Shown here: in pieces, positions 2,272-18,070 of the stretch
Position numbering within the stretch: the first letter of the stretch is position 1
Layout: each line of letters starts with the position of its first letter
Source: Candidatus Cloacimonadota bacterium
GTDB lineage: Bacteria > Cloacimonadota > Cloacimonadia > Cloacimonadales > WRIO01
Assembly: GCA_009777575.1 (NCBI GenBank)
Contig: WRLO01000001.1
Location: 15,493-79,492, forward strand
DNA length: 64,000 nucleotides
Direction: 5' to 3'
Translations under genes and position numbers: made by a program
Notes under the pieces: generated by a model
What the model was told of the DNA's origin: nothing
What the model saw: only the letters and a program-made list of their open reading frames with translations
The model's database searches: none

Positions 2272-2410
2272 TATAGTATGATATATCCCACATAAGCGCA
2301 TGTGTTGTAAATATATAGTGTTATCGCTAATATTAGTCAGAAAAGAGTTCAAGATTTTTCAAGAAAAGTTGGATATTTATTCGAAATGAATTATCTAATT
2401 TTATATATTT

Positions 2411-2490
2411 CCTTACCCATGCCAGAGGTATGGGAAGCTATGTAGAAAAGCAGAAACCCCACACCTTCTAGCATGCCGAAGGTATGCTCC
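2411..2490 (+). repeat. Short intergenic repeat (family 2, copy A) with GC-rich mini-hairpins
   Basis: CATGCCAGAGGTATGGGAAGCTATGTAGAAAAGC matches the reverse complement of 23765..23842 (CATGCCGAAGGTATGTGAAGCTAGGTAGAAAATG). Hairpins lie at 2416..2434 and 2471..2487. Confidence 0.7.
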
Positions 2491-2597
2491 CAAATATAGA
2501 AGCCACATATCAACCGTCCCATACCTACGCCACTACAAAAATCACCTCATCAAAATTAAATAAAAACGACAAAATAGGGGTTCTCGGACTGTTGTCA

Positions 2598-2698
2598 TAC
2601 TAATCCTCATTTAGAAAGTAACGTCAGATTTCCATCTGACGATTGATATATATACTCGAACTAGAAAGTTCGAGCTACATTTTAATTTAGGATTAGTA
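2598..2698. mobile_element. 101-bp MITE-like palindromic unit (termini TACTAATCCT...AGGATTAGTA) with a two-hairpin core
   Basis: 10-bp perfect terminal inverted repeats. Core hairpins are CGTCAGAT-ttcc-ATCTGACG and CTCGAAC-tagaaa-GTTCGAG. Termini are shared with the element at 13807..13954. Confidence 0.55.
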
Positions 2699-2854
2699 TC
2701 GGTTCTGTTTCTTGTTTTTCGAGTTCTTTTATATTTTCCCAAATTTCTCAATATCTCTTGGAGGTTGGTATAAATAAAACAACATAGTCCAATTTTGTCA
2801 TTCTGAACGAAGTGAAGAATCTCGGACCAAAAATTTTAAAATAAGGAGTTTTGT

Positions 2855-3456
2855 ATGGTATACGCTTATGTTAGAGTATCTACAGACAGGCAAACTGTCG
2901 AAAACCAAAAATTTGAGATTAAAAAGTTTTCTGAAGCAAATGACTTAAAAATTGGGAAATGGATTGAAGAATCTATTTCTGGGATGAAAACGCTTCAGGA
3001 GAGAAAACTGGGAAAATTATTAAAACAGATGAAGAAAAACGACATTCTGATATGTTCAGAATTATCTCGTCTGGGAAGAAATCTTTTGATGATTATGGGC
3101 ATCCTAAACGAATGTATGGAGAGAAAAATCAAAGTCTGGACTATAAAAGATAATTATCGTCTTGGAAAAGACATTAATTGTAAAGTGCTTGCTTTTGCCT
3201 TTGGTTTAACAGCTGAAATTGAGAGAGACCTTATCTCTGGAGAACCAAAGAAGCATTAGCAAGGAAAAAAGCTGAAGGCAAAATATTAGGTAGGCCCGTC
3301 GGAAGTAAAAACAAAACAAATAAGCTCAGCGGCAAAGAACACATTATTCAAGAAATGCTTAATGCAAAAATACCTAAGTCACGAATTGCCAAAAAGTTAA
3401 ATGTAAGACGACAAACGCTTTACACATTCATTGAGGAAATGAAGCTAAAAACTTAG
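2855..3456 (+). pseudogene. Serine recombinase (resolvase/invertase family), frameshifted between the catalytic and HTH domains
   Basis: N-terminal part MVYAYVRVSTDRQ...AEIERDLIS stops at 3259. The C-terminal part RTKEALARKKAEGKILGRPVGSKNK...IAKKLNVRRQTLYTFIEE continues in another frame to TAG at 3454..3456. The frame break is near 3237..3243 (atctctggagaacc, one base short of the expected ISERTK). Confidence 0.8.
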
Positions 3457-3575
3457 AAAATAATAACATAGAGAGAGCAAGATGTTGTTGAAATCATCCG
3501 CCAAACCTCAAAAATCAACTATTTTTACATAGTGCTAATTGCTTTATTTTTTATATAGATAGATGCAGAAAATGT

Positions 3576-3717
3576 AGTGTCCAATTTAAAGGTCATTTAA
3601 TTTGGACACTTTTGCTTCTTTGCAAGTATAAAAAAAAGTGTGATTTGAAGCGGGTTTTGAAAAAAGCTCTTGACAGAAACAAGTGTCTAAAAATAATGAC
3701 CTTTTTTATTGGACACT
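3576..3717 (+). promoter_or_regulatory. Two related dyad-symmetry elements (AGTGTCC...GGACACT) bracketing a TTGACA-N17-ATAATG promoter-like sequence
   Basis: Dyad 1 is 3576..3610 and dyad 2 is 3682..3717. Their loops carry GGTCATT and AATGACC, so they are inverted copies. Each is followed by ACTTTT(T)G. TTGACA is at 3670..3675. Confidence 0.4.
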
Positions 3718-3801
3718 TTTTGAAAATGGTAATTAAAAGTGTTGTTATTGAGCATGGTTTTTGCTTGAATTATCTAGCAAAAAACAATGTTGGAGGTAAA
3801 A

Positions 3802-4275
3802 ATGACAGACAATGCAAGAGAGCATTTTAGAGAAGGCTTTTCATACCTATCTCAACAAGATTATGAAAAAGCCATTGAAGAATTTTCAGAGGCTTTGAGC
3901 TTAGACTCAAATTATGAAGAAGCACTTGATGGTAGAGGAAAAGCTTATAAAGGTAGTGGAAATTGTCAAAAAGCAATTTCCGACTTCAATGAATTAATCC
4001 ATTTAAACCCCAACTTCCCTAGCGCTTTTTATTATCGTGGGCAATGTTGGCAAGCAATGAACAGATTTGACGATGCTTTTTTGGATTATGAAGAAGCAAT
4101 ACGAAGAGAACCAAATAATTATATAGGTTATATCGGAAGAGCAGGGATATACTGTGAAAGACAAGAACCATATAAAGCCCTTGAAGATTGCGAGCAAGCT
4201 TTGCAACTTAAACCAGATGCACCTGAAATACTTTATTATATTAAAGTTATCAAAGATGCATTTCGGATACAATAA
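3802..4275 (+). CDS. TPR repeat protein
   Basis: ORF track 3787..4275. GGAGG lies just before the ATG at 3802, so that start is preferred. Tandem TPR-like helices are visible (AIEEFSEALSLDSNYEEAL, AISDFNELIHLNPNFPSAFYYRG, AFLDYEEAIRREPNN). Confidence 0.85.
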   Translation: MTDNAREHFREGFSYLSQQDYEKAIEEFSEALSLDSNYEEALDGRGKAYKGSGNCQKAISDFNELIHLNPNFPSAFYYRGQCWQAMNRFDDAFLDYEEAIRREPNNYIGYIGRAGIYCERQEPYKALEDCEQALQLKPDAPEILYYIKVIKDAFRIQ

Positions 4276-4322
4276 AGAAGAGCCAAATCATGAAAAAATA
4301 TTAAAATATATAAGGAGTCATT

Positions 4323-4751
4323 ATGATTGACAGAACAAAAGCGTGCAAATCCCTGACAATAAGAGGTAACGAATTTTATTGTGGAAAATACAATGAAGAG
4401 TTACCTTATTTAGTGAGCGAGTATAACACTTTACCTTGCAGAGATATTGAAAGACCTGGATTTAGTTGTTTCATAGAAGACTCACGCGAAATGGGAAGAA
4501 GAATGTCAGCATCTGAAAAAAGCGGTTGCTATATCGCTACTTGCGTTTATGGCTCTTATGACAGCCCGGAAGTATGGACACTTAGACGATATCGTGATGA
4601 TGTTTTGATGCGATCATTGCTTGGCAGGTCTTTTATAAGTGTATATTATGCTATCAGTCCGAGCTTGGTTCGATTTTTAGGTGAAAAACAATGGTTTCAT
4701 AGTCTGTTGAAACCAATGTTGGATAAAATAGTACAAAAGTTATCAAAATAA
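4323..4751 (+). CDS. Hypothetical protein with Cys-rich N-terminal half and a C-terminal GCYIATCVYGS...LRRYRDDVL...YY.ISP module
   Basis: ORF with TAAGGAG RBS. The C-terminal motif resembles a CxIATAxYGS...LRxFRD module I recall from termini of surface proteins (recollection only). Confidence 0.75.
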   Translation: MIDRTKACKSLTIRGNEFYCGKYNEELPYLVSEYNTLPCRDIERPGFSCFIEDSREMGRRMSASEKSGCYIATCVYGSYDSPEVWTLRRYRDDVLMRSLLGRSFISVYYAISPSLVRFLGEKQWFHSLLKPMLDKIVQKLSK

Positions 4752-4760
4752 GGAGAAACT

Positions 4761-5270
4761 ATGGATTTTATAGTTTTTTTGGCTTTTGTGGGTGGGATAA
4801 TCTTTTTGGTGAAAAGTCACAAAAATCAAGTAAAGAAAAAGAAAACCGATGAACTAAAAGAGACAGCCGGATATGAGATGGCTATTCTGATAAAAGATAA
4901 ATTACAAGAAGAGGGTTATCTTGTAGGTGATCTAGATGTTCGCACAATTGAGGATAGTATGTGGGGTACGATGGGTAATTTCACGATATTTGACTCTATG
5001 AAAACCAGTATAGGATATATGCAAATATCTCTGACTACTAAAGGAATTAAAGCTGCGTTAGAAGTTCAGAGAAATCAAAGAATGTTAGGTTATGGCGAAG
5101 GATATATAATCTGTTGTGCAAATACAGGAATTTTTATTAAATCATCTAATGATCATAAATTCTTGAAAATTTGTGATCAGGTCATAAAAGACAGCAAATA
5201 TGAGTTTGAACATCCACAGGAATATTATCAATATCCAGAGATGCGAAAGTATCTAAATGTGATGTTTTAA
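4761..5270 (+). CDS. Hypothetical single-pass membrane protein
   Basis: ORF with TAAGGAG RBS. N-terminal hydrophobic helix FIVFLAFVGGIIFLV is followed by a Lys-rich stop-transfer stretch. Confidence 0.75.
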   Translation: MDFIVFLAFVGGIIFLVKSHKNQVKKKKTDELKETAGYEMAILIKDKLQEEGYLVGDLDVRTIEDSMWGTMGNFTIFDSMKTSIGYMQISLTTKGIKAALEVQRNQRMLGYGEGYIICCANTGIFIKSSNDHKFLKICDQVIKDSKYEFEHPQEYYQYPEMRKYLNVMF

Positions 5271-5312
5271 AAATAAATAAAGATTTGAGATTTAATAAAA
5301 ATGGGAGATAAT

Positions 5313-5528
5313 ATGAGTAAACTAATTTGTGTGAAAATGGAGATGCGTGACACAGTTTTACATGGTAAAACTGTATCAGGTATGACTTGTCTATGGTTAG
5401 CAAGAGATCCAGAACACGAAGTGGGCGCTTTATGGTGTTCAAAATACAATGTAAAGTGGCTTGAAGGATATGCTCACCGCTGTATCGAGGGTAGGGAATG
5501 CACATATACAAGAGAAAAATCCTATTGA
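5313..5528 (+). CDS. Small Cys-rich hypothetical protein (71 aa from the second ATG)
   Basis: ORF track 5301..5528. GGGAGA lies 4 nt before the ATG at 5313. Five Cys residues, no recognised family. Confidence 0.55.
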   Translation: MSKLICVKMEMRDTVLHGKTVSGMTCLWLARDPEHEVGALWCSKYNVKWLEGYAHRCIEGRECTYTREKSY

Positions 5529-5574
5529 AAATAGGCAAAAAACTAAAAACAAACCCTAAAAAAGGAGGAGTAAT

Positions 5575-5757
5575 ATGCCTGATATGTGTCCTTATTTCGA
5601 TGATCGTTACGATACTTGTAAACGGTATGGTACACATCAAGAAGAATATCAAGTACGGAACTACTGCTGTACTACGAACTACAGAAATTGTGCAAATTAT
5701 CCGAGTAGTTACATTGAAGTACCTGATATTGACATATTAATAAATGGAAACAAATAG
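5575..5757 (+). CDS. Small Cys-rich hypothetical protein (MCPYFD...C...YCC...Y..C..Y)
   Basis: Strong AAAGGAGGAG RBS and a 60-aa ORF. The overlapping ORFs 5182..5652(-) and 5498..5740(+) lack such signals. Confidence 0.7.
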   Translation: MPDMCPYFDDRYDTCKRYGTHQEEYQVRNYCCTTNYRNCANYPSSYIEVPDIDILINGNK

Positions 5758-5847
5758 TTTTTATTTTATTTTAATTAGCCTATCAGCCAGATTACTTTTG
5801 GTGGTCTGGCTTGATATGGTAAGAATATGCTGGAAAAAGAGTAAACT

Positions 5848-7917
5848 ATGAATAAATTTAATAAAATTATTGTTATAATCATTATGATATACTCTACAAA
5901 ACTATACGCTCAAACCACTTATTATTTAGGTGACGGTGGCATGGGAAAAAGCCTTACTATAACCGAATTTACTCAACAGGGTTTATCAGGAGAGATTGAG
6001 ACTCGTATTCCCAGTTTACTTCAGTGGCAATTAACATCAATTTTCAGTAAATATACAGCTGTCAAAGTTACAGACAGAACTGTATTAAATGAAGTTATCC
6101 TTGAGACTCTTGACCCTATTTATACAGATAACAACTGGGATATAATTAGCTTAGGACACATTTTGCACTCTGATTACATCATGATAGGCAGGATAACAAG
6201 GACATCAACAGGGTTTTCAATACAAATAAGTGTAACAGAAACTAAAAATGGACATATTGTTGCATCTTATTCTGGAATATATACTTTGGAACAAATTGAG
6301 CAACAGTCGGCAACACAAATAATAGCTCAGGACATTTTTTTGCAGATGGGTATTCGAATCACTGAAACTGCCAGAAGAGAATTAAATAGCATAGTAAATC
6401 AAAATCAGATTACAGCACAAATAAACCTTGCTCAAGGCGATACTGCACAAAGACAAGGAACAGTAGTGCAAGCATTAAGCTATTATTTCCAAGCAGCTAT
6501 TTTGGATTCATCACTTCTTGACGAAATAAACAGATATACCATAACAATAGCAAACATAGATTCAGGTGATATAGGCAGGGATGCCCGTGCCGACATCAGA
6601 TGGCGAGAAGCATGGCAAGCTCGTTTGATAGAAACTGAAGAATTTTTCTTTAATTTATTAGAAAACTCGAACCCACCATATACTCTATTTTATGTACCAG
6701 AAGCGATAGAGCGTAAGAATTTGAACTACAACAATCAAACAATAGACATCGCTTTTCCTGTTTACATCAGAGCAAATAGAACATGGTTTACTTCAATAAT
6801 GGGTAGTATGGAAATGGTTACAAAAAAGTTTTACGATGAACTTCAATCTACAGGAATGGCAAGAAATTGGGGCTTAGCAAACTGGCCTAATGCAGGCGTT
6901 TCAAATAGAAATCCATATAATAGAGCATGGAATAAAGACATCCAAATAGTATTCGAGCTTGTGAATGACCAAAATAGAGTTATAGGTAGATGGAATAATA
7001 ATATTCCTTTTAGTTTTTCTATGAGAAATATGCAAACGGTATTTAACGACCATCAACAGCAAATCGAGTTTAGAGGCGTTAATGCAAATGAGGTTTCCAG
7101 CAGGCTTGAAATTCGTATAATTAGTATAAATGGTGTATCACCACAAAATGCAAAATTTCCTATTAAAACTCTTACAAAAGCTCAATTTGAGGAAAGTATA
7201 AGGTTAGAAAGCGAAAACAGATTTGTAGTAGAAAATGGCGTGTTAAAAGGATATTCTAATACTTATTTACAAAATAATAGGCTTGCTAGTGATAGAGTAA
7301 GAGTTTTAAGTATTCCTGCATTAATTTTCAAATGGGACGAAGTTCATCAAATTTCATCAATAGGAGAAGGTGCTTTTGCAAACCAAAGAATCGGCAGAGT
7401 CATTATTTCAAAATCTATTCATACAATAAGTGATGGTGCGTTTCGTGATAATAACATATCAAGTATAGAATTTTCGGACAGAATAATAAGAAGTGGTGAG
7501 CGGTATATGGCAGATTTAAGCAATATCACTTTGTATGATGTAAATGTTGTCTCTATTGGAAATCACGCCTTTCAAAACAACTGGTTAAGAGTTTTAAACC
7601 TACCCGAAAGCGTTACTAATATTGGTGATAACGCTTTCTATGGAAATTATTTAGCTGAAATTGTCATTGATAAAAATATTCAAAAAATTGGCAGAAACGC
7701 TTTTACGGGAATGAAATGTCCATGGACTGGCAGAAATCAAGAAATATCAAAAATAACTATAAGCGATAAGGTTAAATTATTGTACGGTGCATTTAGTGAT
7801 AGTTTTATGTATGCTTATTATAACGATACCGGGCGAAAAGCAGGTAGATACGAAAGCCAAGTTTTTGGCTCTGAACAAAATCCTAAATATTATTGGAGAT
7901 TGTATGATGCGAACTAA
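5848..7917 (+). CDS. Secreted multidomain protein: signal peptide, LpoB/CsgG/TolB-N-like module, helical region, unknown middle, C-terminal BspA-type leucine-rich repeats
   Basis: Signal peptide IIMIYSTKLYA-Q. The module reads VTDRTVLNEVILE...SDYIMIGRITR...FSIQISVTETKNGHIV. LRR_5-like repeats include ISSIGEGAF, IHTISDGAF, VVSIGNHAF, VTNIGDNAF and IQKIGRNAF. Confidence 0.85.
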   Translation: MNKFNKIIVIIIMIYSTKLYAQTTYYLGDGGMGKSLTITEFTQQGLSGEIETRIPSLLQWQLTSIFSKYTAVKVTDRTVLNEVILETLDPIYTDNNWDIISLGHILHSDYIMIGRITRTSTGFSIQISVTETKNGHIVASYSGIYTLEQIEQQSATQIIAQDIFLQMGIRITETARRELNSIVNQNQITAQINLAQGDTAQRQGTVVQALSYYFQAAILDSSLLDEINRYTITIANIDSGDIGRDARADIRWREAWQARLIETEEFFFNLLENSNPPYTLFYVPEAIERKNLNYNNQTIDIAFPVYIRANRTWFTSIMGSMEMVTKKFYDELQSTGMARNWGLANWPNAGVSNRNPYNRAWNKDIQIVFELVNDQNRVIGRWNNNIPFSFSMRNMQTVFNDHQQQIEFRGVNANEVSSRLEIRIISINGVSPQNAKFPIKTLTKAQFEESIRLESENRFVVENGVLKGYSNTYLQNNRLASDRVRVLSIPALIFKWDEVHQISSIGEGAFANQRIGRVIISKSIHTISDGAFRDNNISSIEFSDRIIRSGERYMADLSNITLYDVNVVSIGNHAFQNNWLRVLNLPESVTNIGDNAFYGNYLAEIVIDKNIQKIGRNAFTGMKCPWTGRNQEISKITISDKVKLLYGAFSDSFMYAYYNDTGRKAGRYESQVFGSEQNPKYYWRLYDAN

Positions 7918-8302
7918 TTTAATAATATTAATTATTTTATTAATTATTACATCGTGCAGCGTGCAATCAAATTATATCCAAACTTGGAATACAAGGCAGA
8001 TAAAAACTGTCTATGTTAAACCGTTTTCTACAGAACTAATTGGAGAAGACGAAGTGGTAAATCAACTGACAGAAGAAGCAAAACGCTTCATCCGTTCTAT
8101 CAATAAATTTCAACTGGTCACTGCAGAAAATACAGCAGATGCTGTTTTTTCAGGTGAACTTATTGATAAACAAGACAGATACATTATTTTTAATTATTGG
8201 ATGATAAGCAGAACTGGCTTGTTAATTGGTGAAAATTCAGGTTATATCAACATTGCACAAACTCGTAAACGCTTTAGTAATATGAAAAAATTAATTAAAT
8301 AA
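7904..8302 (+). CDS. Small lipoprotein with LptE/LpoB-like pattern
   Basis: The ORF-track frame 7787..8302 contains an internal ATG at 7904 giving MMRTNLIILIILLIITSC (lipobox ITSC). It overlaps the upstream stop by 14 nt. Pattern: KTVYVKPFS...ADAVFSGELI. Confidence 0.75.
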   Translation: MMRTNLIILIILLIITSCSVQSNYIQTWNTRQIKTVYVKPFSTELIGEDEVVNQLTEEAKRFIRSINKFQLVTAENTADAVFSGELIDKQDRYIIFNYWMISRTGLLIGENSGYINIAQTRKRFSNMKKLIK

Positions 8303-8315
8303 ATATGGAGGTAAA

Positions 8316-8906
8316 ATGTTAAAAAAAATAACATTTGCAACAATTTTCTTATTGATGTTTTGGATGCTTAATGCACAAATGATGAGTGCACGGCAGAGAC
8401 ATTTGAGAATCAACTTAGGTGGTGGCGTTAGTTGGATTATCGGAGAAGATGTAAAAAACAAAGATGATAATCACGTTTATGAACCACAATTTAACTTTGG
8501 GGCTGGGTTGTCTTGGGTGGGTGATTCACCTGACAAAATTAGCTTTGAACCGGGAATACGCTATGTAATGCGTGGATTTGACGAAATTTATGATAAAGAC
8601 TCTGAAAATCCGAGATATGAAGGTACATCAATATCATATATTGATGTCTATGGGAAAATAAAGTATGGTATAGGCCAGTTCTATATGTCCATAGGTTCAG
8701 GAGTTGCTATTGCACCTTTCACAGAACACTACAATACTTTCAATGTACCGCTGATGATGGGATTCGATTATTATTTCAGACCTAACATTATTTTTGGTAT
8801 GGATATTGATATCTTGCTCCTTGATATGCCCGTAAAAGATGCATACCCTAATTTCAACAAAGTTAAAGGGATTACAGGGCTGTTTACGGTTAGTTTTTTG
8901 ATATAA
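8316..8906 (+). CDS. Outer-membrane beta-barrel protein (small OmpA-like/OMP_b-brl type)
   Basis: GGAGG RBS and signal peptide FLLMFWMLNA-Q. Alternating hydrophobic strands are rich in G/Y/F, and the C-terminus has an aromatic strand LFTVSFLI. Confidence 0.75.
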   Translation: MLKKITFATIFLLMFWMLNAQMMSARQRHLRINLGGGVSWIIGEDVKNKDDNHVYEPQFNFGAGLSWVGDSPDKISFEPGIRYVMRGFDEIYDKDSENPRYEGTSISYIDVYGKIKYGIGQFYMSIGSGVAIAPFTEHYNTFNVPLMMGFDYYFRPNIIFGMDIDILLLDMPVKDAYPNFNKVKGITGLFTVSFLI

Positions 8907-8930
8907 AAATAAATTATAAAGAGGTAAATT

Positions 8931-10682
8931 ATGAAAACAAAAAATCAAATTTTATTAGTAATTGCATTATTTGTTTTACTAATAATAGGATGTGAAACAA
9001 CAAAACCAGACCCGATAATTACTGGAGTTTTGGTAAGTCCATCTACCGCTACTGTGACTCGTGGGCATTCACAGCAATTTACAGCAACTGTAGAAGGAAC
9101 TAATGACCCACCACAAAGCGTTACATGGACAATTTCTGATGGTAGCGGTGGCTCGTCTATCAACTCAAATGGTGTTTTGTTTGTTTCTGCAAGTGAACCG
9201 GCATCTGTATTGACTGTAACGGCACGGTCTACAATCAATTCGGCTTTTTCAAGCAGTGCTACAGTTAATGTCACTGGGGCGATTATTACAAGTGTAACTA
9301 TTTCTCCAAAATCTATTAATTTGGCACAAGGGCAAACACAACAATTTACAGCCACTGTAAATGGAAGCCACAACCCGCCACAAACTGTGGCATGGTCAAT
9401 ATCAGGAAATAATTCTTCTGATACAAGTATTAACTCAAATGGTCTATTGTCTATTGCGTCAAACGAAAGTGCTAACTCAATCATTGTTAATGTTGCATCA
9501 ACCGTTAGTAGTGATATCAGCGATACTGCAACAGTAACCATAGCCAGTATGGGCGGTACATACAATGTAACAGATATCGCCTCTTGGATAGAAGCTATAC
9601 AAGGCATCAGAAACGGAGGAAACAACAGAATCCATGTAATTAATGTAACAGGTGAAGTAAATGTTAATGTCAATACTGAAGTTACCTTTGGTTCTGTAAC
9701 AAATATTCAAGTTACTATTCAAGGTGGTGGCACGCTGGCATTAACTGCTGCTGGGAATATTCTACGGATAGGGCTTAGGCATAATATCATACTGCAGGAT
9801 GTTACTTTGAAAGGAATTTCTACGAATACGACAGAGCCGGTTGTATATGTGGCTGCTGGGGGGGTACTGACGATGAGGAATGAGGCAGTTATATGTGAAA
9901 ATGGAGGTAGAGGTGTTATTGTCGATAATGGAGAATTGAATATGGAAGGAGGGAGTATAAGAGACAATATAACACCTTGGACATGGGATTTGACAGGTTC
10001 TGGTGTTTACATTATGAATGGAGGTACACTTACTATGTCTGGAAATGCTCAGATATCAAATAATGTTGTTGATGGGTGGCGAGTATATGGAGGTGGAGTA
10101 CATATTGGATCAAACTCAACTCTAATTATGGAAGGTGGCATAATTTCAAGCAATAGAACGGAGACAACCTTTAGAGGATGGGGTGGTGGAATCTATATTG
10201 ATGGAACATTAATTATGAACGGAGGAGAAATTTCATATAATATAGCCTCTGGTTCATCTGGTACTGGAGGGGGGGTGTATATTACATCAACTGGAAGTTT
10301 TATTATGAATAATGGAACGCTAACAGGAAATAATGCTGGTAGTTTGGGAGGTGGTGTATATGTTTACAACATTTTTACACAAAATGGGGGAACTATATCA
10401 AACAACAGTGCAGACAGAGGTGGTGGAGTATATATCGATTCATATCGCTCTTACACAATGACTGGTGGCACAATATCTGGAAATAATGCTGGTAGCAATG
10501 GTGGCGGGGTATATGTGAATAGCGGAAACACTATTTTTGCTAAAACCGGTGGCAATATCGCATCTAACACCGCTTCTCAAAATGGCAATACAGCATTTTC
10601 GAACACCAGTCCGAATAAATGGCGAAATGCCAATGCTGGACCAAATGTTAATGTTGATGATTTATTTTGGCTAAATGACTAA
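8931..10682 (+). CDS. Surface lipoprotein: two Big_2 Ig-like domains followed by beta-helix GGGVY(I/V) repeats (adhesin-like)
   Basis: Lipobox LLIIGC. Big_2 signatures are GHSQQFTATVEGTNDPPQSVTWTIS and GQTQQFTATVNGSHNPPQTVAWSIS. GGGVYI/GGGVYV repeats recur every ~25-30 aa. Confidence 0.85.
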   Translation: MKTKNQILLVIALFVLLIIGCETTKPDPIITGVLVSPSTATVTRGHSQQFTATVEGTNDPPQSVTWTISDGSGGSSINSNGVLFVSASEPASVLTVTARSTINSAFSSSATVNVTGAIITSVTISPKSINLAQGQTQQFTATVNGSHNPPQTVAWSISGNNSSDTSINSNGLLSIASNESANSIIVNVASTVSSDISDTATVTIASMGGTYNVTDIASWIEAIQGIRNGGNNRIHVINVTGEVNVNVNTEVTFGSVTNIQVTIQGGGTLALTAAGNILRIGLRHNIILQDVTLKGISTNTTEPVVYVAAGGVLTMRNEAVICENGGRGVIVDNGELNMEGGSIRDNITPWTWDLTGSGVYIMNGGTLTMSGNAQISNNVVDGWRVYGGGVHIGSNSTLIMEGGIISSNRTETTFRGWGGGIYIDGTLIMNGGEISYNIASGSSGTGGGVYITSTGSFIMNNGTLTGNNAGSLGGGVYVYNIFTQNGGTISNNSADRGGGVYIDSYRSYTMTGGTISGNNAGSNGGGVYVNSGNTIFAKTGGNIASNTASQNGNTAFSNTSPNKWRNANAGPNVNVDDLFWLND

Positions 10683-10746
10683 ATTCATAGAGGTTATTTT
10701 ATGAGTTTTAACGATTCGGTAAACAGAGGACCGCCATATTATTGGA

Positions 10747-10786
10747 ACTCGAACTTTCCAGTTCGAGTCAGTTAGAAAGCTGACTC
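10747..10786. repeat. Solo copy of the two-hairpin core of the MITE-like family, possibly acting as a terminator
   Basis: ACTCGAAC-tttcca-GTTCGAGT and GAGTCAG-ttagaaag-CTGACTC. These match the reverse complement of the core at 2622..2676. Confidence 0.6.
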
Positions 10787-10861
10787 TACACAAAAATCCC
10801 AAAAGCGATAAAAATATCAATGTCATGAAAAGAATGACAAATAAAAATAATGGAGGGTTAA

Positions 10862-12226
10862 ATGAAAACCTTGAAAAAAAGAATAAACTCAATGGAGAAA
10901 AAAATGAAAAGATATTTCTCAATCCTAAACTCCAAAGAAAGTCTTGTAAAAAAGACACTGATTTTTATGTTAATTTTATTAACAATACCAAGTATAATGC
11001 TCACACAATCTCAGTCAAATTTAAATGGCGAATTTGTATTTAGCCATGGAGATGGTTTTGAAGTATGGCGGGATCCACATGTAAGATTCCCAGAAGCACA
11101 ACAAAGACAACCATCAATTGAATTTTCGGGTGATACGTTTACATTAATTGATTATCCGATTGAATATGCAACTGATGTAGTGTCTACAAGTTGGACAAAT
11201 AGACTTCCCTTAGCTTTCGTAACAGCACAAAATAGAGAAGAGCCGCTTTTGAAATTGAATTCTTGGCAAAATCCATGGCCTTTTCATCCAGAAGAAGCTC
11301 GTTTTAGAAGGATTTTTACAGGGACATATATCGTGGAGGATAACACTATTGAATTGTCCTTTTCAAATGGAACTATAAGAGCATTGCCCTTTTCAAGAAC
11401 AACCAATACAGTAACTATCGCCAATATGCAATTTAACCGAAAACCTACTACTGACACAGCAGATAACAAAGCCTCTATGCTTGTAGGGAGATGGATATTT
11501 GAAAGTGGAAGTTCAGGCAGAAATTGGATTCAGGTTGAAGAGTTTTTTAAGGATGGAACAGGTCGGTTTGAAAGTGACAATAATCAAGGTTTTTTGTGGC
11601 TCATTGACGAAGAGTCTTTAGTTTATATCAACAACAATAGTCCTAACAGATGGAATCTTTCGATATCAGAAAATTCATTTACAATCAGACACTCTGATGG
11701 TCGCTATGCTACATATATAAGAAGTGACGGGGATCCACGTCCTCAAACTACATCATTAGAAACTATGATGGCAGAATTAAATAGGCAAAAAAGCCAACTA
11801 GAAACTATGAGACCTATGCTTTCACAATCTGGAATAAGAGAAGCAGAAGCAATAATTCAAGAATTGCAGGCTAAAATTGATGAAGAAAATCAAAAATTGG
11901 AAAAAGATTTATCGACACCTAGTACAACCCAATCTTCCAACACTGTAGCAAATCCTAAAATACAACATGAAATAGTAGGACTGTGGCATGGAGTCTCGAT
12001 GGGACAATTTGTATTTATAACTTTTTCTGATGATGGTGAATATATAGAAGAAGCACCACTTGCAGGGATATATGCCGAAGGTACATATAGTGTAAATGGA
12101 AACTCAATGACGATTACAATTCCCGGAATGAGCAGAATTCAATATCAATTTTCTATAAGGAACAATGAGCTTCACTATAGATATCAAGGTATCGATTTTC
12201 AATTTGTTAGATTGGATACGGAATAA
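10862..12226 (+). CDS. Secreted hypothetical protein with a central coiled coil and lipocalin-like GxW segments
   Basis: GGAGGG RBS 4 nt upstream. Hydrophobic signal-like segment TLIFMLILLTIPSIML, coiled coil MMAELNRQKSQLETM...QELQAKIDEENQKLEKD, and VGRWIFESG / IVGLWHGVS segments. Confidence 0.8.
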   Translation: MKTLKKRINSMEKKMKRYFSILNSKESLVKKTLIFMLILLTIPSIMLTQSQSNLNGEFVFSHGDGFEVWRDPHVRFPEAQQRQPSIEFSGDTFTLIDYPIEYATDVVSTSWTNRLPLAFVTAQNREEPLLKLNSWQNPWPFHPEEARFRRIFTGTYIVEDNTIELSFSNGTIRALPFSRTTNTVTIANMQFNRKPTTDTADNKASMLVGRWIFESGSSGRNWIQVEEFFKDGTGRFESDNNQGFLWLIDEESLVYINNNSPNRWNLSISENSFTIRHSDGRYATYIRSDGDPRPQTTSLETMMAELNRQKSQLETMRPMLSQSGIREAEAIIQELQAKIDEENQKLEKDLSTPSTTQSSNTVANPKIQHEIVGLWHGVSMGQFVFITFSDDGEYIEEAPLAGIYAEGTYSVNGNSMTITIPGMSRIQYQFSIRNNELHYRYQGIDFQFVRLDTE

Positions 12227-12240
12227 TAAAGGAGCAAAAA

Positions 12241-13509
12241 ATGAAATGTCAAAAATTTTTATCATTCACAGTATTTTTATGCCTTATGCTGACCATTGTC
12301 AGTTGTGGAAGTAAAGATGTCAAAACCTTGCTGATTGGGGAATGGGTGGGCGAAATGAGTGATGAACCAGGATTCTCAATGAAATTTAAATTTAATTTTC
12401 AAAATGACGGTTCTGGGATGTTTACTAGAGAATACAGTTACGAAGGTGAGACAGAATCATACCCACAGCCTTTAACTTGGAGTTTAAATAATGACTTTAG
12501 TTTAGTTATTACTGTGGGCGGAGATCCTGAGACATTTACAATTGTAGAAATATCTAACTCATTACTCAATCTTGAACAAGATGGTGAAACTTTGTCTTTT
12601 ATGAAACAAGGTTCTCAAAGCGGTAAAAGTGGCGGTGTTGTTCGGAATACGGGTACATCTCAAACAAGAAGAAGTGTTGTGGAGGATTTAGGTGTAGTTG
12701 GTGAAGTAGAAGCTACCATTACCAAGACGGTAAGTAATGATGGTATACATTGGAATAACATGGTAAATGACCTAAGAAATTCAGCAAGACAAGAAGCTTC
12801 GAGAGACGCAACTGGTACATTAGTTACAAAAGGCTTTGAGCAGTATGGGCAAGGATATTATAATGTCCGTAATATTGAAATACATCATCTTCGTGATCTT
12901 CCTATACGTCGTGGATCCTATCCTTTTCAATATAATGAAAGGCATTCTTATGAATTTAAAGTAACAGGTCAATTATATAAACAGAATATAATCGCACCTA
13001 AAGAATTACCAATTACTCAAGAAAGAGGTACGATAAACATGAGTATAGACCCAGGTTATAGGCGTATAATGGTTAGTTCTGATGATGATGCTCGAAATCT
13101 ATTTTTTGATGAGATGATGCGAGAAGCTATAGGTAAATATAGCAATGCTCTTGATGTGATAAATATCAAATTATCTGGTAACAATATAACAGGGCAAATT
13201 TTAATAAATATCACTTTGCCATTAAATGGCTCTGTAAACAAAGCATTGGAAAACCTCAGAAAACATATTCCCCAAGATGCGAAAGTTTCTATAGGTGACA
13301 TTAGTACACCAATCAGAAAACTAAAGAACAATGTCAACAAAGAAATAGAGTCTTACTTTAAAGACAGAGATTTTAAGTTTGTAAGGTCAAGAAGTGATTT
13401 TAGAATTACTGGAAGAATCGAAGGGGAAGGTGAAAACAGAAAATTGCATCTTCAACTGATAAACACCAAAACGGGGAACATAGTTGACTCTACAACAGTT
13501 CCGATTTAA
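12241..13509 (+). CDS. Lipoprotein with an N-terminal lipocalin-like segment and a C-terminal LpoB/CsgG-like module
   Basis: AAAGGAG RBS and lipobox TIVSC. LLIGEWVGE segment. C-terminus reads DFKFVRSRSDFRITGRIEG...KLHLQLINTKTGNIV. Confidence 0.8.
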   Translation: MKCQKFLSFTVFLCLMLTIVSCGSKDVKTLLIGEWVGEMSDEPGFSMKFKFNFQNDGSGMFTREYSYEGETESYPQPLTWSLNNDFSLVITVGGDPETFTIVEISNSLLNLEQDGETLSFMKQGSQSGKSGGVVRNTGTSQTRRSVVEDLGVVGEVEATITKTVSNDGIHWNNMVNDLRNSARQEASRDATGTLVTKGFEQYGQGYYNVRNIEIHHLRDLPIRRGSYPFQYNERHSYEFKVTGQLYKQNIIAPKELPITQERGTINMSIDPGYRRIMVSSDDDARNLFFDEMMREAIGKYSNALDVINIKLSGNNITGQILINITLPLNGSVNKALENLRKHIPQDAKVSIGDISTPIRKLKNNVNKEIESYFKDRDFKFVRSRSDFRITGRIEGEGENRKLHLQLINTKTGNIVDSTTVPI

Positions 13510-13592
13510 ATCAAGTTAAGATATTTTTAGCGAAAAAATTTTACTTATTCTTTTATGACTATTACAGAAAAGTCACTGGTGTAAACTAAAGA

Positions 13593-13665
13593 ACCGCCGT
13601 ATACCGAACGGTACGTACGGTGGTGTGGGAGGATGGTCACCCAAATAATGAGTGACCTCCTACCC
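13593..13665. repeat. GC-rich hairpins downstream of the cluster (terminator-like repeat)
   Basis: ACCGCCGTA...TACGGTGGT (13593..13624) contains a nested TACCG-aa-CGGTA. An imperfect GGGAGGATGGTCAC...GTGACCTCCTACCC follows (13627..13665). The 5-prime part resembles 10728..10745 (GACCGCCATAT). Confidence 0.55.
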
Positions 13666-13806
13666 GATTTGATACTCATACTTAGACTTCTTTTCTTTAT
13701 AAATAATCTCTTTAATTATCCATTTTCATTGGTTGTTCTTCCAATTCTTCGATGCTAGGCAGAGTTTTTAAAATCATCTGGTAACAGCTTGGATAATTGA
13801 TATTCA

Positions 13807-13954
13807 TACTGTTCCTCATTTAAAATGAAATCATAAATACATTCCGTAGTGGAGGAGCTTGCCTCCGTCCAATATTGATGATATATTAATTTTGGACGGA
13901 GGCAAGCTCCGCCACTACGGAATATGAGAATTACATTTTATATGAGGATTAGTA
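13807..13954. mobile_element. 148-bp MITE-like element inserted in the DUF1016 gene
   Basis: Imperfect TIRs TACTGTTCCTCATTTAAAATG / TACTAATCCTCATATAAAATG. The 32-bp hairpin arms 13841..13872 and 13892..13923 have one mismatch. Identical TATTCA flanks sit at 13801..13806 and 13953..13958. Confidence 0.7.
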
Positions 13955-14414
13955 TTCAGAAACGCCAATAGGTTGATTTAATATTTCTAAGTGATAAAAA
14001 AGCAGGTCTATAAATCGTTCTGTTTCTCCTATATTCACTGGTATTTGTCTACCGACATAAGCAAAACCATGCCCAAGTTCCAATAATAATTTTGTAATAT
14101 TTGTCGTCAGAGCATCTTCAAGCTCTTTTTCTTTATAGTTATCAGTAAGGGTTATAAAATCAAAATTATATGGGTCTTTTAAAATTTGATGTGCAAGGGC
14201 ACTTTGTGGTTCTGGTAAAAGACGCGAGAAATTGGTTTGTGCTTTTCCTTGTATTAAATACAAATCAGCTTTAATAAAATTCATCAAAACAGCACGACTC
14301 CATCCATTTTCGATGGTCTTTTGCACATAAAATAGAGCTTCTTTTATGGATTTGCATTTGGTAATGATTTCTCTGTGATGCCCCCAAGGAATTTGAAAAA
14401 TAGGGTGATTTACG

Positions 14415-14516
14415 AATTCGTCCACAACTTGTGGACGAATTGTAACGCCTTTATTTTCAATTGAATGTAATTCCGCACCAAGTTGTTGCGGAATTTCGTC
14501 ACCAAGTTGGTGACGA
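14415..14516. repeat. Cluster of palindromes embedded in frame in the DUF1016 remnant
   Basis: AATTCGTCCACAA-C-TTGTGGACGAATT (14415..14441), TTCAATTGAA, AATTCCGCA...TGCGGAATT (14469..14495), TCGTCACCAA-G-TTGGTGACGA (14496..14516). Confidence 0.9.
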
Positions 14517-14815
14517 TTTGAGTTTTCATTTGAATAAAATAAATAAAAACGTTTAATGTAAAGCAAATTTCTTTCAGAAAAACCCCTCATATCAGAAAAT
14601 TCTTTTATGCACTTGAGAAGTTGTCTTTTATACTCTTCTTCTATGTCTACCCAATTTTGCTTTTCAATTTTTTCACTAATCAAAAACAGAAATTTTTTTT
14701 AACATCAAAGGATGTTCTAACAATTCCATCTATTTCTACTTTATTTTAAACCAGCGATAACCTACCTCGTTAGGTTTTCTTGAATTAATAAAATCATAAA
14801 GGTTGTTAATTATAA

Positions 14816-14965
14816 TTATTTCATCTTCATAATTATATTTATGTCTTTTTTCTTCTTTAACTTTTTTCTCATTTTATCCCAAAAATAATCTATAAAATCA
14901 TTATAACTGGTTTTTAAACCATGGGCAAAGTCAAAACCATTTCCAATTAAAATAATCCTATTCAT
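14816..14965 (-). pseudogene. AbiH-family (abortive infection) N-terminal fragment, 49 codons
   Basis: Hand translation MNRIILIGNGFDFAHGLKTSYNDFIDYFWDKMRKKLKKKKDINIIMKMK then stop. IGNGFDxAHGLxTSYxDF is the AbiH N-terminal signature as I recall it. Full-length members are several-fold longer. Confidence 0.6.
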
Positions 14966-15003
14966 ACCGAATTTTGAAACTCCTCATTTTAATATAAAGA
15001 AAT

Positions 15004-16401
15004 TTAAGATTTTTCTTCCAACAATCCCGTGTTTATTATCCAAATTCCTTTTTTCCTCGAACCTGCTCTTTCTATTAATCCTATTCTTTTTAGATAGCGA
15101 ATATTCTTATCTATCCCATGTATAGATATTCCAATTTCCGATGCAATATCACCCATGGTAACAGTAGGTTTTTCATGTAAAATATTCAAAATTTTCTGTT
15201 GCGTCTCGTTTAACCCGTACTTTATCTCGTACTTTATCTCGTACTTTTCTCCTTCATTGTTTTCTAAACCAGCTTTTTTTCTATAATTATCCTCAACATG
15301 AAACCCTATCATGACATCATTACCTTTGACTCGATAAAAAGGTTTTTGCAACCCCCAATCTTTGCAAGCATTTGTTATCTTTTCAACCCCTCTTCCCCAA
15401 GACTCAATCTGTCCAGAACGAAAAAACGCACCTGCTATAAATGGATTGTATGGTTTTGAAGTGTGTTTTGAGAAGAGGTCATCGACAGTCCACGAGTCTG
15501 GAAGTTTGCCATCATTGTAAATCAAAACTTCTTCTGGGTAAATATGAATATGTATTGGATTGCCCGTGCTGTAATCTCTATGTATGATAGCGTTTAAGAT
15601 TGCCTCTCTAAAAGCTTGGCGCGGAATGGGGAATGTCTCTATTCTTTGCATCCCCTCATAGCTAATGATACCTTTAAAGTATTTCGAATAAACTAAATCT
15701 TCTGCTTTATCAGCCATTGTTATCAATGGTCCATGTATTTCATCTTGAAAAATAAGGTCTGCTGCATTGGCAAAATAACCTATTTTGATATAAGCACCTG
15801 GCACCCAATTCTCAGGTTCTTGATGAAACACAAGCAAAGCTGCTCTTTTCAGATAATCTCCTTCAATAAGATGAAGATTCTCGAGAAGCTCTTCATCATT
15901 AATTTCAAGATCTTGTGCAGTCAAACGACCGCTCGCTTTAGCCTTACGGCGAAATGATTTAAAAGCATCTTTATCAAAATCATCATAAGATACTCTGGGA
16001 ATTGGGACGCCATCCCAGGTCTTCCCTTTTCTTCTTAAAATAAAGTCATCAAGAGCGTTTCCAGTAAGCTCCTGGGTAGTGCTACCCGAACGCAAATAAT
16101 AAACACCTCGATAGCTGATAGGAAATGGATAAGAATTTATTTTGATTGAAATATATTTTTTCTCGCCAACGATATGAAGAGCAACATCAGCAACTATAGC
16201 CATGCTGTTCTTTATTTTATTTGGTAAATCTTCCATGAGTTTTTTGGTATCGAATAAACCAACTGTTTCACCTTTATCATTTCTTCCTATATCAAGTCTA
16301 CCACCTGAAGCATTAGCAAAGGCACATATAGTTTTTAAATGATTGTCATGCCAAGATTCTTTATATTCGAGATTGTGGGTTTCGAAAGAATAGTTATCCA
16401 T
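15004..16401 (-). CDS. AlbA_2 (Schlafen-type) / HATPase_c_4-like ATP-binding protein with C-terminal winged-helix
   Basis: 465-aa ORF with HNLEYKESW...ICAFANASGGRLDIG, REAILNAIIHRDY and a C-terminal HTH TMGDIASEIGISIHGIDKNIRYLKRIGLIER. A short 15-nt tandem encodes KYEIKYEIKY. Confidence 0.85.
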   Translation of the reverse strand: MDNYSFETHNLEYKESWHDNHLKTICAFANASGGRLDIGRNDKGETVGLFDTKKLMEDLPNKIKNSMAIVADVALHIVGEKKYISIKINSYPFPISYRGVYYLRSGSTTQELTGNALDDFILRRKGKTWDGVPIPRVSYDDFDKDAFKSFRRKAKASGRLTAQDLEINDEELLENLHLIEGDYLKRAALLVFHQEPENWVPGAYIKIGYFANAADLIFQDEIHGPLITMADKAEDLVYSKYFKGIISYEGMQRIETFPIPRQAFREAILNAIIHRDYSTGNPIHIHIYPEEVLIYNDGKLPDSWTVDDLFSKHTSKPYNPFIAGAFFRSGQIESWGRGVEKITNACKDWGLQKPFYRVKGNDVMIGFHVEDNYRKKAGLENNEGEKYEIKYEIKYGLNETQQKILNILHEKPTVTMGDIASEIGISIHGIDKNIRYLKRIGLIERAGSRKKGIWIINTGLLEEKS

Positions 16402-16585
16402 TTATGCTCCTTATTTTCATATTTTCTAATAAATATTTTAATCGGTTTTCTACCTCTAGAATTATCTCACTCCATTTTTTTACAAAAACTTTATAATTAT
16501 CATCTTTTACAGTTAATCCTGTTGATTTATCAGTTATTTTTCTTGCTACAATATCATCATAATCCTGTCCATATATACACTTCAA
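16394..16585 (-). CDS. Small hypothetical ORF overlapping the AlbA_2 start (possibly the tail of a decayed gene)
   Basis: 63-aa ORF whose stop overlaps the ATG of 15004..16401 (ATAAATGGATAA). The region upstream to 16790 is broken into short stop-interrupted frames. Confidence 0.3.
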   Translation of the reverse strand: MKCIYGQDYDDIVARKITDKSTGLTVKDDNYKVFVKKWSEIILEVENRLKYLLENMKIRSING

Positions 16586-16845
16586 TGGCTTTTTCAGGTT
16601 TTATATTTTTCAAAATTCATTTTTATTGTATTGGATGTTATTTCAACCGTTTACGAGTTCATTTTGAATATCTCCTTGGATTATATATATTTTGTCTAAA
16701 GCATTTATTGCTCTGTTAATATCTCTATTTTAAATGATCTTAATTTCTGTAGAAAGCTGAGTTCACATCTAACAAATAATCCATACTAAATCCTTAAAAT
16801 AACCTTTTCTCCAATAGGAGACAAATTATTTAAATCAAGCTTTTT

Positions 16846-16927
16846 TGTCAATACAATATTTTAGCATGTAAAACTATTTGGGAAAAAATTCCCAAACTTT
16901 CTTTCGTTATTTTCTCAAACTATTTAG
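16846..16927 (-). promoter_or_regulatory. Conserved upstream box R2 (AGTTTGAGAA-N13-AGTTTGGGAA, 16890..16927) plus TTGACAAAAAAGCT -35-like element (16846..16851)
   Basis: Aligns with R1 and R3. This copy also forms the hairpin TTTGGGAA-tttt-TTCCCAAA immediately after the stop of 16934..18070. Confidence 0.45.
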
Positions 16928-16933
16928 AGGTTT

Positions 16934-18070
16934 TTACCTATCAATAAAATGTTCGTTTTCAAAATTCATTAATTCATCTTGAAATTCCTCTAAGGTAGGC
17001 AAAACTGCTTTCATTTCATCAGCAAGTTCTGTATATGTAAATTTTCCAACCCCTAAAGGCCGGTTTAAACTTTCCAATGCATAATCAACAACAATATCAT
17101 CTTTGTCTTTACATAACAAAATGCCAATAGTTGGTTTATCTGTCTCATCTCTAAGTAATTTGTCTACCGTTGTAACATAAAAAACCAATTTGCCTGTAAA
17201 ATCGGGATCAAATTCCCTCATTTTTAACTCAATGACAATATAGCATTTAAGCTTTGTATGGTAAAATAACAAATCTGTCCGAAATTCCTTTGAACCTACT
17301 TTTAAAAGGTATTGTCGTCCCATGTAGGCAAAACCTTTCCCTAACTCTGTGAGAAACTGAGCCATATGTTGAATTAAAGCTTTTTCTAAATCAGTTTCTC
17401 TTACTTTGTCGGACAAACTCAGAAATTCAAAATTATATTCGTTTTTCATTATTTCGTTTGCAAGATCGCTGTCTGGTTTTGGCAGAGTTAATTTGAAATT
17501 AGTGGTGATTTTTTCTTTTCGTTTATAAAGTTCAGTTTCTATTTGGTATTCCAAAACTGCACGACTCCAATTGTTTTCGATAGTTTTTTGAACATAAAAT
17601 AATGCTTCTTTTATGGATTTGCATTTGGTAAATATCTGTATATGATGTCCCCATGAAATTTGAAAAATAGGATGCTTTTCAAATTCGTCAACAACTTGTT
17701 GACGAATTGTAACATCTTTATTTTCAATTGAATGTAATTCCACACCAAGTTTGTGTGGAATTTCGTCACCAAGTTGGTGACGATTTGAACTTTCTTGCGA
17801 GTAAAATAAGTAAAACCGTTTGCAGTATTTCAAATTGGTTTCAGAAAACCCTTTCATATCAGGAAATTCTTTTCTTAAATCATTGCTCAATCGTTCAAAA
17901 AAACCGCTACCCCATACAGAGTCCATTTGGCGGCTGACAATGTCACACCCTAAATCCCAATATAAGAGCAATAGTTCTGTGTTTACCTTTACAGCAGCTT
18001 TTATTTGACTATGCTGTATCTTATTTTTTAGATCAGCCAGCCATTTTTTATAATCATTGTCGACTTTCAT
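16934..18070 (-). CDS. DUF1016 family protein (YhcG-like, PD-(D/E)XK nuclease fold)
   Basis: 378-aa ORF with GFSETNLKYCKRFYLFY, WGHH, WSRAVLEYQI, GKGFAYMGRQY, DLLFYH...IVIELK. Confidence 0.85.
   Translation of the reverse strand: MKVDNDYKKWLADLKNKIQHSQIKAAVKVNTELLLLYWDLGCDIVSRQMDSVWGSGFFERLSNDLRKEFPDMKGFSETNLKYCKRFYLFYSQESSNRHQLGDEIPHKLGVELHSIENKDVTIRQQVVDEFEKHPIFQISWGHHIQIFTKCKSIKEALFYVQKTIENNWSRAVLEYQIETELYKRKEKITTNFKLTLPKPDSDLANEIMKNEYNFEFLSLSDKVRETDLEKALIQHMAQFLTELGKGFAYMGRQYLLKVGSKEFRTDLLFYHTKLKCYIVIELKMREFDPDFTGKLVFYVTTVDKLLRDETDKPTIGILLCKDKDDIVVDYALESLNRPLGVGKFTYTELADEMKAVLPTLEEFQDELMNFENEHFIDR
17682..17783. repeat. Cluster of palindromes embedded in frame in the intact DUF1016 gene
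   Basis: AATTCGTCAACAA-C-TTGTTGACGAATT (17682..17708), TTCAATTGAA, AATTCCACAC-caagttt-GTGTGGAATT (17736..17762), TCGTCACCAA-G-TTGGTGACGA (17763..17783). Confidence 0.9.

Follow-up and report, generated by a model that had tools for sequence, protein, structure and literature searches.

Can a run of eleven co-directional genes, none of which looks enzymatic, encode a single, previously unrecognized cell-envelope system? The question is raised by positions 3802-13509 of a 64,000-nucleotide stretch of contig WRLO01000001.1 (hereafter the window, to which all coordinates refer), which originates from a termite-gut Candidatus Cloacimonetes bacterium metagenome-assembled genome (MAG) with locus tags FWG98_*. 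An original prediction proposed such a system, carried as horizontally acquired cargo. The cluster fails as a candidate for a new envelope machine; it is an ordinary accessory locus with one testable regulatory feature. On balance we lean towards a lineage-specific mosaic accessory operon, situated in a variable island and encoding surface proteins under a plausible Mpi-type switch, rather than a dedicated multi-protein machine. Two metagenome assemblies contain this DNA as well, JGI 3300002469 at 100% and ENA ERZ27257348 at 99.97% identity.

The eleven-gene cluster

All eleven open reading frames (ORFs) lie on the + strand between 3802 and 13509, exactly where the original prediction had placed them. 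Its description of co-directional genes with short gaps or overlaps and good ribosome-binding sites (RBSs) agrees with the ORF coordinates and our reading of the start sites. GGAG-type sites precede ten of the eleven starts, the weaker one being that of g6; g6 and g7 overlap by 14 nt, and the remaining gaps measure 9-90 nt save that between g9 and g10, which is 179 nt. Lengths below are in amino acids (aa).

3802..4275, + strand: g1, cytoplasmic TPR protein, 157 aa
4323..4751, + strand: g2, small protein of 142 aa with a Cys-containing N-terminus and a helical C-terminal CFI-box-CTERM domain
4761..5270, + strand: g3, single-pass membrane protein anchored by an N-terminal transmembrane helix
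5313..5528, + strand: g4, 71 aa with 5 Cys, a singleton
5575..5757, + strand: g5, 60 aa with 5 Cys
5848..7917, + strand: g6, signal peptide, LpoB/PelC/TolB-N-like domain, helical region, beta-sandwiches and BspA-type leucine-rich repeats (LRRs)
7904..8302, + strand: g7, small lipoprotein with lipobox ITSC, in no family
8316..8906, + strand: g8, small outer-membrane beta-barrel (OMP_b-brl_2, marginal at 27.7 bits against 27)
8931..10682, + strand: g9, lipobox, two Big_2 domains and seven GGGV(Y/H)(I/V) repeats; beta-helix-like and adhesin-like
10862..12226, + strand: g10, exported; C-terminal DUF5640/Lipocalin_4 (lipocalin-like) domain and a short coiled coil
12241..13509, + strand: g11, lipobox, N-terminal Lipocalin_4 domain and a C-terminal domain of about 95 aa from a small family

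Searches with Pfam and NCBIfam profiles found no enzyme domain in the cluster, in keeping with the original claim, nor did they find an ATPase, a secretin, a pilin, a sortase or any further component for energy coupling or assembly; none of the proteins matched a PADLOC defence model. Most of the domain calls made at the outset were likewise supported by the profile searches. The exception is g7, which had been called LptE/LpoB-like and has no Pfam or NCBIfam match at E < 0.01, the LpoB family (PF13036) included.

Conservation and composition of the cluster

The proposal of one cell-envelope system is not supported by comparison with other loci. For the anchors that could be tested, homologs are scattered and never co-localised, an outcome that the original prediction itself had named as refuting it. 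Searches by tblastn of 56 g6-homolog loci, reaching up to 10 kb on each side, found no relative of g2, g3, g4, g5, g7, g8, g9 or g11, and nothing more than generic TPR matches in four loci and a single lipocalin-domain match. Clustering of every neighboring ORF at these loci gave no recurrent partner family, and no coupled small lipoprotein was found downstream of the g6 homologs. Relatives of g11 are equally solitary, every other cluster gene being missing from the three contexts that could be retrieved. For g3, no homolog other than itself was found among 5.8 billion clusters, in a search that apparently returned only proteins of about 0.55-1.7 times the query length, so that g3 domains within much longer proteins are possible. 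At 90% identity, all ten looked-up cluster proteins except g5 (with g3 and g6 left out) form singleton clusters; apart from g1, whose exact sequence is absent, the looked-up proteins are found in the collection.

In the one adjacency that we found to recur, a g2-like gene precedes a g5-like gene, on a contig (L063; 1,984 bp; G+C content 0.339; ENA ERZ27257348 k141_3157104) whose downstream genes are quite different. The order there is the 3' end of a CFI-box gene, a g5 homolog, a 299-aa RCC1-repeat protein and a membrane/coiled-coil protein, with no g3, no g4 and nothing similar to g6-g11. The product of the CFI-box gene is 50% identical to g2, and the g5 homolog is 85% identical to g5, with 15 synonymous versus 9 non-synonymous codon differences and every Cys kept. 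Because the g2/g5 pair recurs without the exported-protein genes, the cluster comprises at least two unrelated modules. On this comparison g2 and g5 make up a small pair that recurs independently of the exported proteins, and each of the products of g6-g11 appears to be drawn from a narrow family of its own.

No trace of recent transfer is visible in composition, because both measures used fall within the range of 41 core genes located at 19-64 kb. The G+C content at third codon positions is 0.259 in the cluster against 0.243 +/- 0.035 in the core, and per-gene codon-usage likelihoods have z values from -2.0 to +1.2, inside the core-gene range. A recent foreign origin on compositional grounds was therefore rejected. 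Of the earlier suggestion of horizontally acquired cargo rather than core envelope genes, the accessory character stands, given the variable island, the singleton proteins and the g6 kin in other phyla; a recent foreign origin finds no support in composition.

The CFI-box and Cys-rich gene pair

Residues 69-137 of g2 match model NF041770 (CFI-box-CTERM) over positions 1-69 of 69, at 82.5 bits against a cut-off of 40. The C-terminal 69 residues of g2 thus fit the model end to end, but g2 has only 142 aa, whereas the nearest CFI-box domains, at 55-62% identity, form the C-terminal ends of multi-domain proteins of 836-1401 aa, which carry zinc-ribbon, TPR/Sel1, TIR_2, LRR_5, RCC1 or Hsp70 regions. 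Both g2 and the CFI-box gene of the second locus are followed by the conserved 60-aa Cys-rich gene; in contrast, no g5-like gene stands beside the long CFI-box proteins at three such loci. A scan of metagenome and viral contig collections returned no relatives of g5.

The structure model of g2 has a mean predicted local distance difference test (pLDDT) score of 55.5 and is confident only for the four CFI-box helices, residues 82-141; Foldseek found no fold match for it, and our literature search found no paper mentioning CFI-box. By eye, the Cys-rich regions of g2, g4 and g5 were suspected to be paralogous, an idea not supported by hhalign (probabilities below 1%) or by BLAST (no match).

An Mpi-family invertase gene and a candidate invertible promoter

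Upstream of g1 lie a recombinase gene and a pair of dyad sites, the left (IRL) and right (IRR) inverted repeats, that bracket a promoter.

2855..3456, + strand: Mpi-family serine DNA invertase gene; ORF 2855-3259, remainder in the next frame to 3456
3576..3610: IRL, AGTGTCCAATTTAAA-GGTCA-TTTAATTTGGACACT
3682..3717: IRR, AGTGTCTAAAAATAA-TGACC-TTTTTTATTGGACACT, with a core reverse-complementary to that of IRL
3670..3697, + strand: sigma-70-like promoter, TTGACA-16-AATAAT, 11/12, reading towards g1

The original prediction described the recombinase as decayed, and noticed neither its Mpi-family identity nor the repeat-bracketed promoter. The gene is in fact full length but for a single 1-nt deletion near 3240, where GAGAGAACC has become GGAGAACC; the deletion may be real or an assembly error. 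Once repaired, its 200-aa product scores 320.6 bits against NF009949 (master DNA invertase Mpi family serine-type recombinase; cut-off 272), covering positions 1-198 of 203. It has Resolvase and HTH_7 domains, and its best PDB match is the Gin invertase. The exact truncated ORF is not in the protein collection searched. Both independent assemblies of this DNA, contigs L001 and L002, end at 3340-3351, inside the helix-turn-helix-coding part of the gene; the part upstream may accordingly recur or vary within the population, as it would, for instance, if there were several mpi paralogs.

IRL and IRR, of about 35 nt each, stand in inverted orientation and share a perfectly conserved 10-mer (AAAGGTCATT / AATGACCTTT); the pattern of the dyad sites is AGTGTCCAA(N17)TTGGACACT. 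When the intergenic region was dinucleotide-shuffled 1000 times, a pair scoring as well arose in 8 of the shuffles (p ~0.008). In the 64 kb of the window the four half-sites are confined to 3576-3717, apart from one chance-level match with two mismatches. The promoter at 3670-3697 is the top-scoring one in the 11.7 kb from 2300 to 14000, and both of its hexamers fall between the IRL and IRR cores. This order of IRL, promoter and IRR resembles the anatomy of an invertible promoter in its ON state, and we regard it as a candidate on the strength of that geometry.

In Bacteroides fragilis, Mpi inverts the promoters of surface loci (PMC4747536, PMC10403206). The likeness to those invertons lies in the small serine recombinase above the NCBIfam Mpi-family equivalog cut-off, and in the promoter set between inverted repeats upstream of a multi-gene surface operon. 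The differences are that the phylum here is Cloacimonadota, that the cargo consists of proteins and not of capsule biosynthesis genes, that the invertase gene is frameshifted and adjacent to its putative target, that the segment, at about 106 bp, is shorter, and that inversion is here a prediction from sequence geometry. The IRL/IRR repeat sequence is also unlike the Mpi motif.

An exported protein family with exchangeable C-termini

The exported nature of g6-g11 is read from signal peptides and lipoboxes, plus domain matches. About 90 relatives of g6 occur in termite-gut metagenomes, at 27-44% identity. What they have in common is an N-terminal part of about 450 residues for which neither Pfam nor NCBIfam has a model, and their C-termini are variable: LRR_5, FNIP, Fib_succ_major, DUF1566, FGE-sulfatase or PPC. 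The C-terminus of g6 itself matches LRR_5 (PF13306) at 76.4 bits against a gathering score of 27.7, and gives PDB profile matches to 4gt6 and 4fs7.

In a scan of GTDB genomes we found 52 g6-family loci, often several copies per genome, all of them in termite-gut MAGs of Treponema/Spirochaetia or of Fibrobacterota (Chitinispirillales, Fibrimonadaceae). None of the 52 is in Cloacimonadota, so that in the data searched the MAG of the window is the family's one source in that phylum, and the family was not found in viral contigs. This distribution looks like sharing across phyla inside one habitat.

A structure model of g6 built from a 76-sequence alignment has a mean pLDDT of 83.6. Searched against the PDB with Foldseek, its C-terminus matches BspA-like LRR proteins, and its N-terminal domain matches the TolB N-terminal domain, LpoB, PelC, GNA1162, FlgT and the periplasmic domain of CadC; for the LpoB, PelC, TolB-N and GNA1162 structures the probability is ~1.0 and the TM-score to the target 0.4-0.58. 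These matches fit an exported, outer-membrane-associated scaffold with an exchangeable ligand-binding head, and as modeled g6 looks adhesin- or receptor-like and not enzymatic. Comparison with the BspA-type LRR proteins (TpLRR; PDB 4gt6, 4fs7, 6mlx) therefore holds for the C-terminal region, which matches both LRR_5 and solved structures; unlike them, g6 has an additional 450-aa N-terminal module, and the LRR region is one of several interchangeable C-termini. Similarly, the model of the N-terminal domain aligns with the LpoB/PelC/TolB-N/GNA1162 fold, an outer-membrane-associated periplasmic alpha/beta domain, but g6 has no PF13036 match and no sequence-level membership, and the cluster has none of the partners with which such proteins act (PBP1b, the Pel machinery and Tol-Pal).

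The remaining exported proteins

Apart from its marginal barrel match, g8 shows weak similarity to TDE1717/DUF2715. A search of 1.84 billion representatives with g11 gave 22 matches, of which about seven have its C-terminal domain of about 95 aa. That domain was considered as LpoB/TolB-N-like and thus as kin to the g6 N-terminus; the idea is not supported, as the hhalign probability is 2.7%, the similarity covers a 35-residue motif only, and Pfam gives nothing. A distant g11 relative (P0121) belongs to a co-directional run of unannotated genes at 6610-16749 of a 54-kb contig (L062; JGI 3300002462; G+C content 0.358). The run includes a PF13036 LpoB-family lipoprotein, and none of its genes is homologous to the other cluster genes of the window.

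Genomic setting

The cluster is set in a variable island, whose other features are as follows.

2-2134, - strand: AlbA_2/HATPase_c_4 (AlbA_2/Schlafen) gene, running off the left edge of the window
2597..2699: unit 1 resembling a miniature inverted-repeat transposable element (MITE), with 24-nt terminal inverted repeats (ATACTAATCCTCAT...) enclosing two internal hairpins
10748..10790: a pair of hairpins between g9 and g10, of which the first matches, on the reverse strand, a hairpin inside MITE-like unit 1
13592..13668, + strand: 77-nt remnant of a group II intron 3' end (domains V-VI; Rfam Intron_gpII, 46.4 bits)
13806..13955: MITE-like unit 2, with termini as in unit 1, abutting the truncated YhcG gene
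13949-14683, - strand: truncated YhcG gene, aligning with residues 67-274 of the intact paralog
14816-14965, - strand: AbiH N-terminal fragment, 49 aa
15004-16401, - strand: gene for a protein with AlbA_2/Schlafen, HATPase_c_4 and winged helix-turn-helix domains
16934-18070, - strand: intact YhcG gene

MITE-like units had been placed on both sides of the cluster, and they do have terminal inverted repeats in common, with ATACTAATCCTCAT-type termini at 2597, 2699, 13806 and 13955. The flanks had also been read as defence and mobilome debris, which the AlbA_2/Schlafen genes on both sides, the two YhcG genes, the AbiH fragment and the intron remnant confirm. The minus-strand genes at 13949-18070 form a defence-like remnant array, in which the truncated and the intact YhcG nuclease genes have 84% DNA identity over 300 nt. 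The intron remnant, immediately 3' of g11, is a stranded fragment with both the intron body and the reverse-transcriptase ORF absent. From about 18.8 kb on there are core genes, including a Lol-type ABC transporter, desulfoferrodoxin, rubrerythrins and ThiC/ThiE.

Between the two MITE-like units, a single 11.4-kb insertion into YhcG was considered and rejected, since the missing C-terminus of YhcG is not left of 2597. No target-site duplication is evident in the flanks of the MITE-bounded block. A 20-nt hairpin, CTCGAACTNGAAAGTTCGAG, occurs on opposite strands at 2655-2674 (inside MITE-like unit 1) and at 10748-10767 (in the g9-g10 gap) with 19/20 identical positions, and may be a small dispersed element like the repetitive extragenic palindromic (REP) sequences. 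Within the minus-strand AlbA_2/HATPase_c_4 gene at the left edge, 742-976 holds three 63-nt tandem repeats (82-83% identity), which would encode 21-aa repeats.

Alternative explanations

Cooperation of all eleven products in one unrecognized cell-envelope system, be it an assembly, secretion or adhesion machine moved as mobile cargo, would suit the tight packing with its 14-nt g6/g7 overlap, the good RBSs, and the complementary localisations (periplasmic, outer-membrane barrel, lipoprotein) of six exported proteins; the LpoB/PelC/TolB-N fold of the g6 N-terminus, moreover, occurs in ring-forming outer-membrane-associated lipoproteins. Yet the components co-occur nowhere among the loci tested, the g2/g5 pair recurs beside different neighbors, profile searches recovered none of the energy-coupling or assembly parts listed above, and the codon usage is native. 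The missing conserved synteny appears largely to refute this explanation, which we regard as very improbable. Another proposal treats g1-g5 as a stand-alone module of conflict or defence type, a split version of the large CFI-box proteins, lying next to g6-g11 as an unrelated surface operon. The nearest CFI-box domains do end long TIR_2, TPR/Sel1, LRR_5, RCC1 or Hsp70 proteins, the TIR parts of which give weak PADLOC TIR matches; AlbA_2, YhcG and AbiH genes occupy the flanks, and the second CFI-box locus joins its g5 homolog to an RCC1 protein. However, PADLOC has no match for g1-g5, which are without an effector domain (nuclease, TIR or NTPase), the three long CFI-box proteins have no g5-like gene adjoining them, and the CFI-box, with its absence from the literature searched and the poor, unmatched model of g2, offers no handle on function. 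We consider a defence module unlikely.

Several observations weigh against a mosaic operon controlled by a switch. The invertase gene is frameshifted and has no intact ORF. Three assemblies, those of the window and of contigs L001 and L002, all show the ON orientation and no other, and scans of metagenome and viral contig collections for the ON junction and for the OFF junction (CCAATTTAAAGGTCATTATTTTTAGACAC) returned no copy, that of the known contig included. The putative invertible segment of about 106 bp is below the size of the invertible promoter segments of Bacteroides polysaccharide loci, which are roughly 170-190 bp, and IRL may be no more than a terminator hairpin belonging to the recombinase gene, with IRR an operator. 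A promoter-like internal site at 5729-5758 and the hairpin-bearing 179-nt gap between g9 and g10 mean that the eleven genes may not share one transcript. As for the mosaic itself, homolog searches for g4, g7, g8, g9 and g10 were limited, and sub-pairs such as g7-g8 or g8-g9 may be conserved elsewhere.

Taken at their strongest, these points describe a locus with no switch, in which the recombinase is the relic resolvase or invertase of a dead element, the dyads are either its res or operator sites or a terminator and an operator, and the promoter is fixed and constitutive. The frameshift and the single orientation are then what one would see; a T-rich tail follows the IRL hairpin, dead mobile DNA abounds in the region (MITE-like units, intron remnant, truncated genes), and the inverted-repeat score is only moderately significant. 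Against this, the repaired protein passes the equivalog cut-off for Mpi master invertases rather than that of a resolvase family, the sites are inverted with an exact 10-nt core and enclose both promoter hexamers, and the dyad arrangement is unlike that of a usual res site, which in Tn3/gamma-delta normally has three subsites upstream of the resolvase gene. A fixed promoter is possible, though on this evidence we doubt it.

Proposed mechanism and implications

If the cluster is, as we favor, a mosaic accessory operon with an Mpi-type switch, it would join two unrelated modules. The first, g1-g5, would consist of small cytoplasmic or membrane-anchored proteins grouped around g2, with its CFI-box-CTERM domain, and the conserved Cys-rich g5 that partners it. 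The second, g6-g11, would supply an LRR binder, two or three lipoproteins, a small outer-membrane barrel, a Big_2/beta-helix adhesin-like lipoprotein and lipocalin-like proteins, which most plausibly decorate the outer membrane and bind particles, protists or other gut cells. Transcription most likely starts at the one strong promoter at 3670-3697. Inversion of the segment of about 106 bp between the IRL and IRR cores would turn this promoter away from g1, and the operon would then be expressed phase-variably, as surface loci of Bacteroides are. The putative switch would be ON in this assembly; given the 1-nt deletion in the invertase gene, it may be locked in that state or may be flipped in trans.

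A stronger version, in which an Mpi-type invertible promoter works outside Bacteroidota and phase-varies an operon whose g1-g5 products are needed to display or release the six exported proteins, is decidedly improbable. Should that need for g1-g5 prove true, it would provide the first functional context for the CFI-box-CTERM domain. For the annotation of termite-gut metagenomes, the cross-phylum g6 family with its swappable binding domains and the conserved CFI-box/Cys-rich gene pair are leads in their own right. A real switch would carry Mpi-type phase variation of surface architecture into a candidate phylum without a cultured termite-gut member, and would make bet-hedging over adhesin-like coats a general strategy of gut symbionts, those of insects included.

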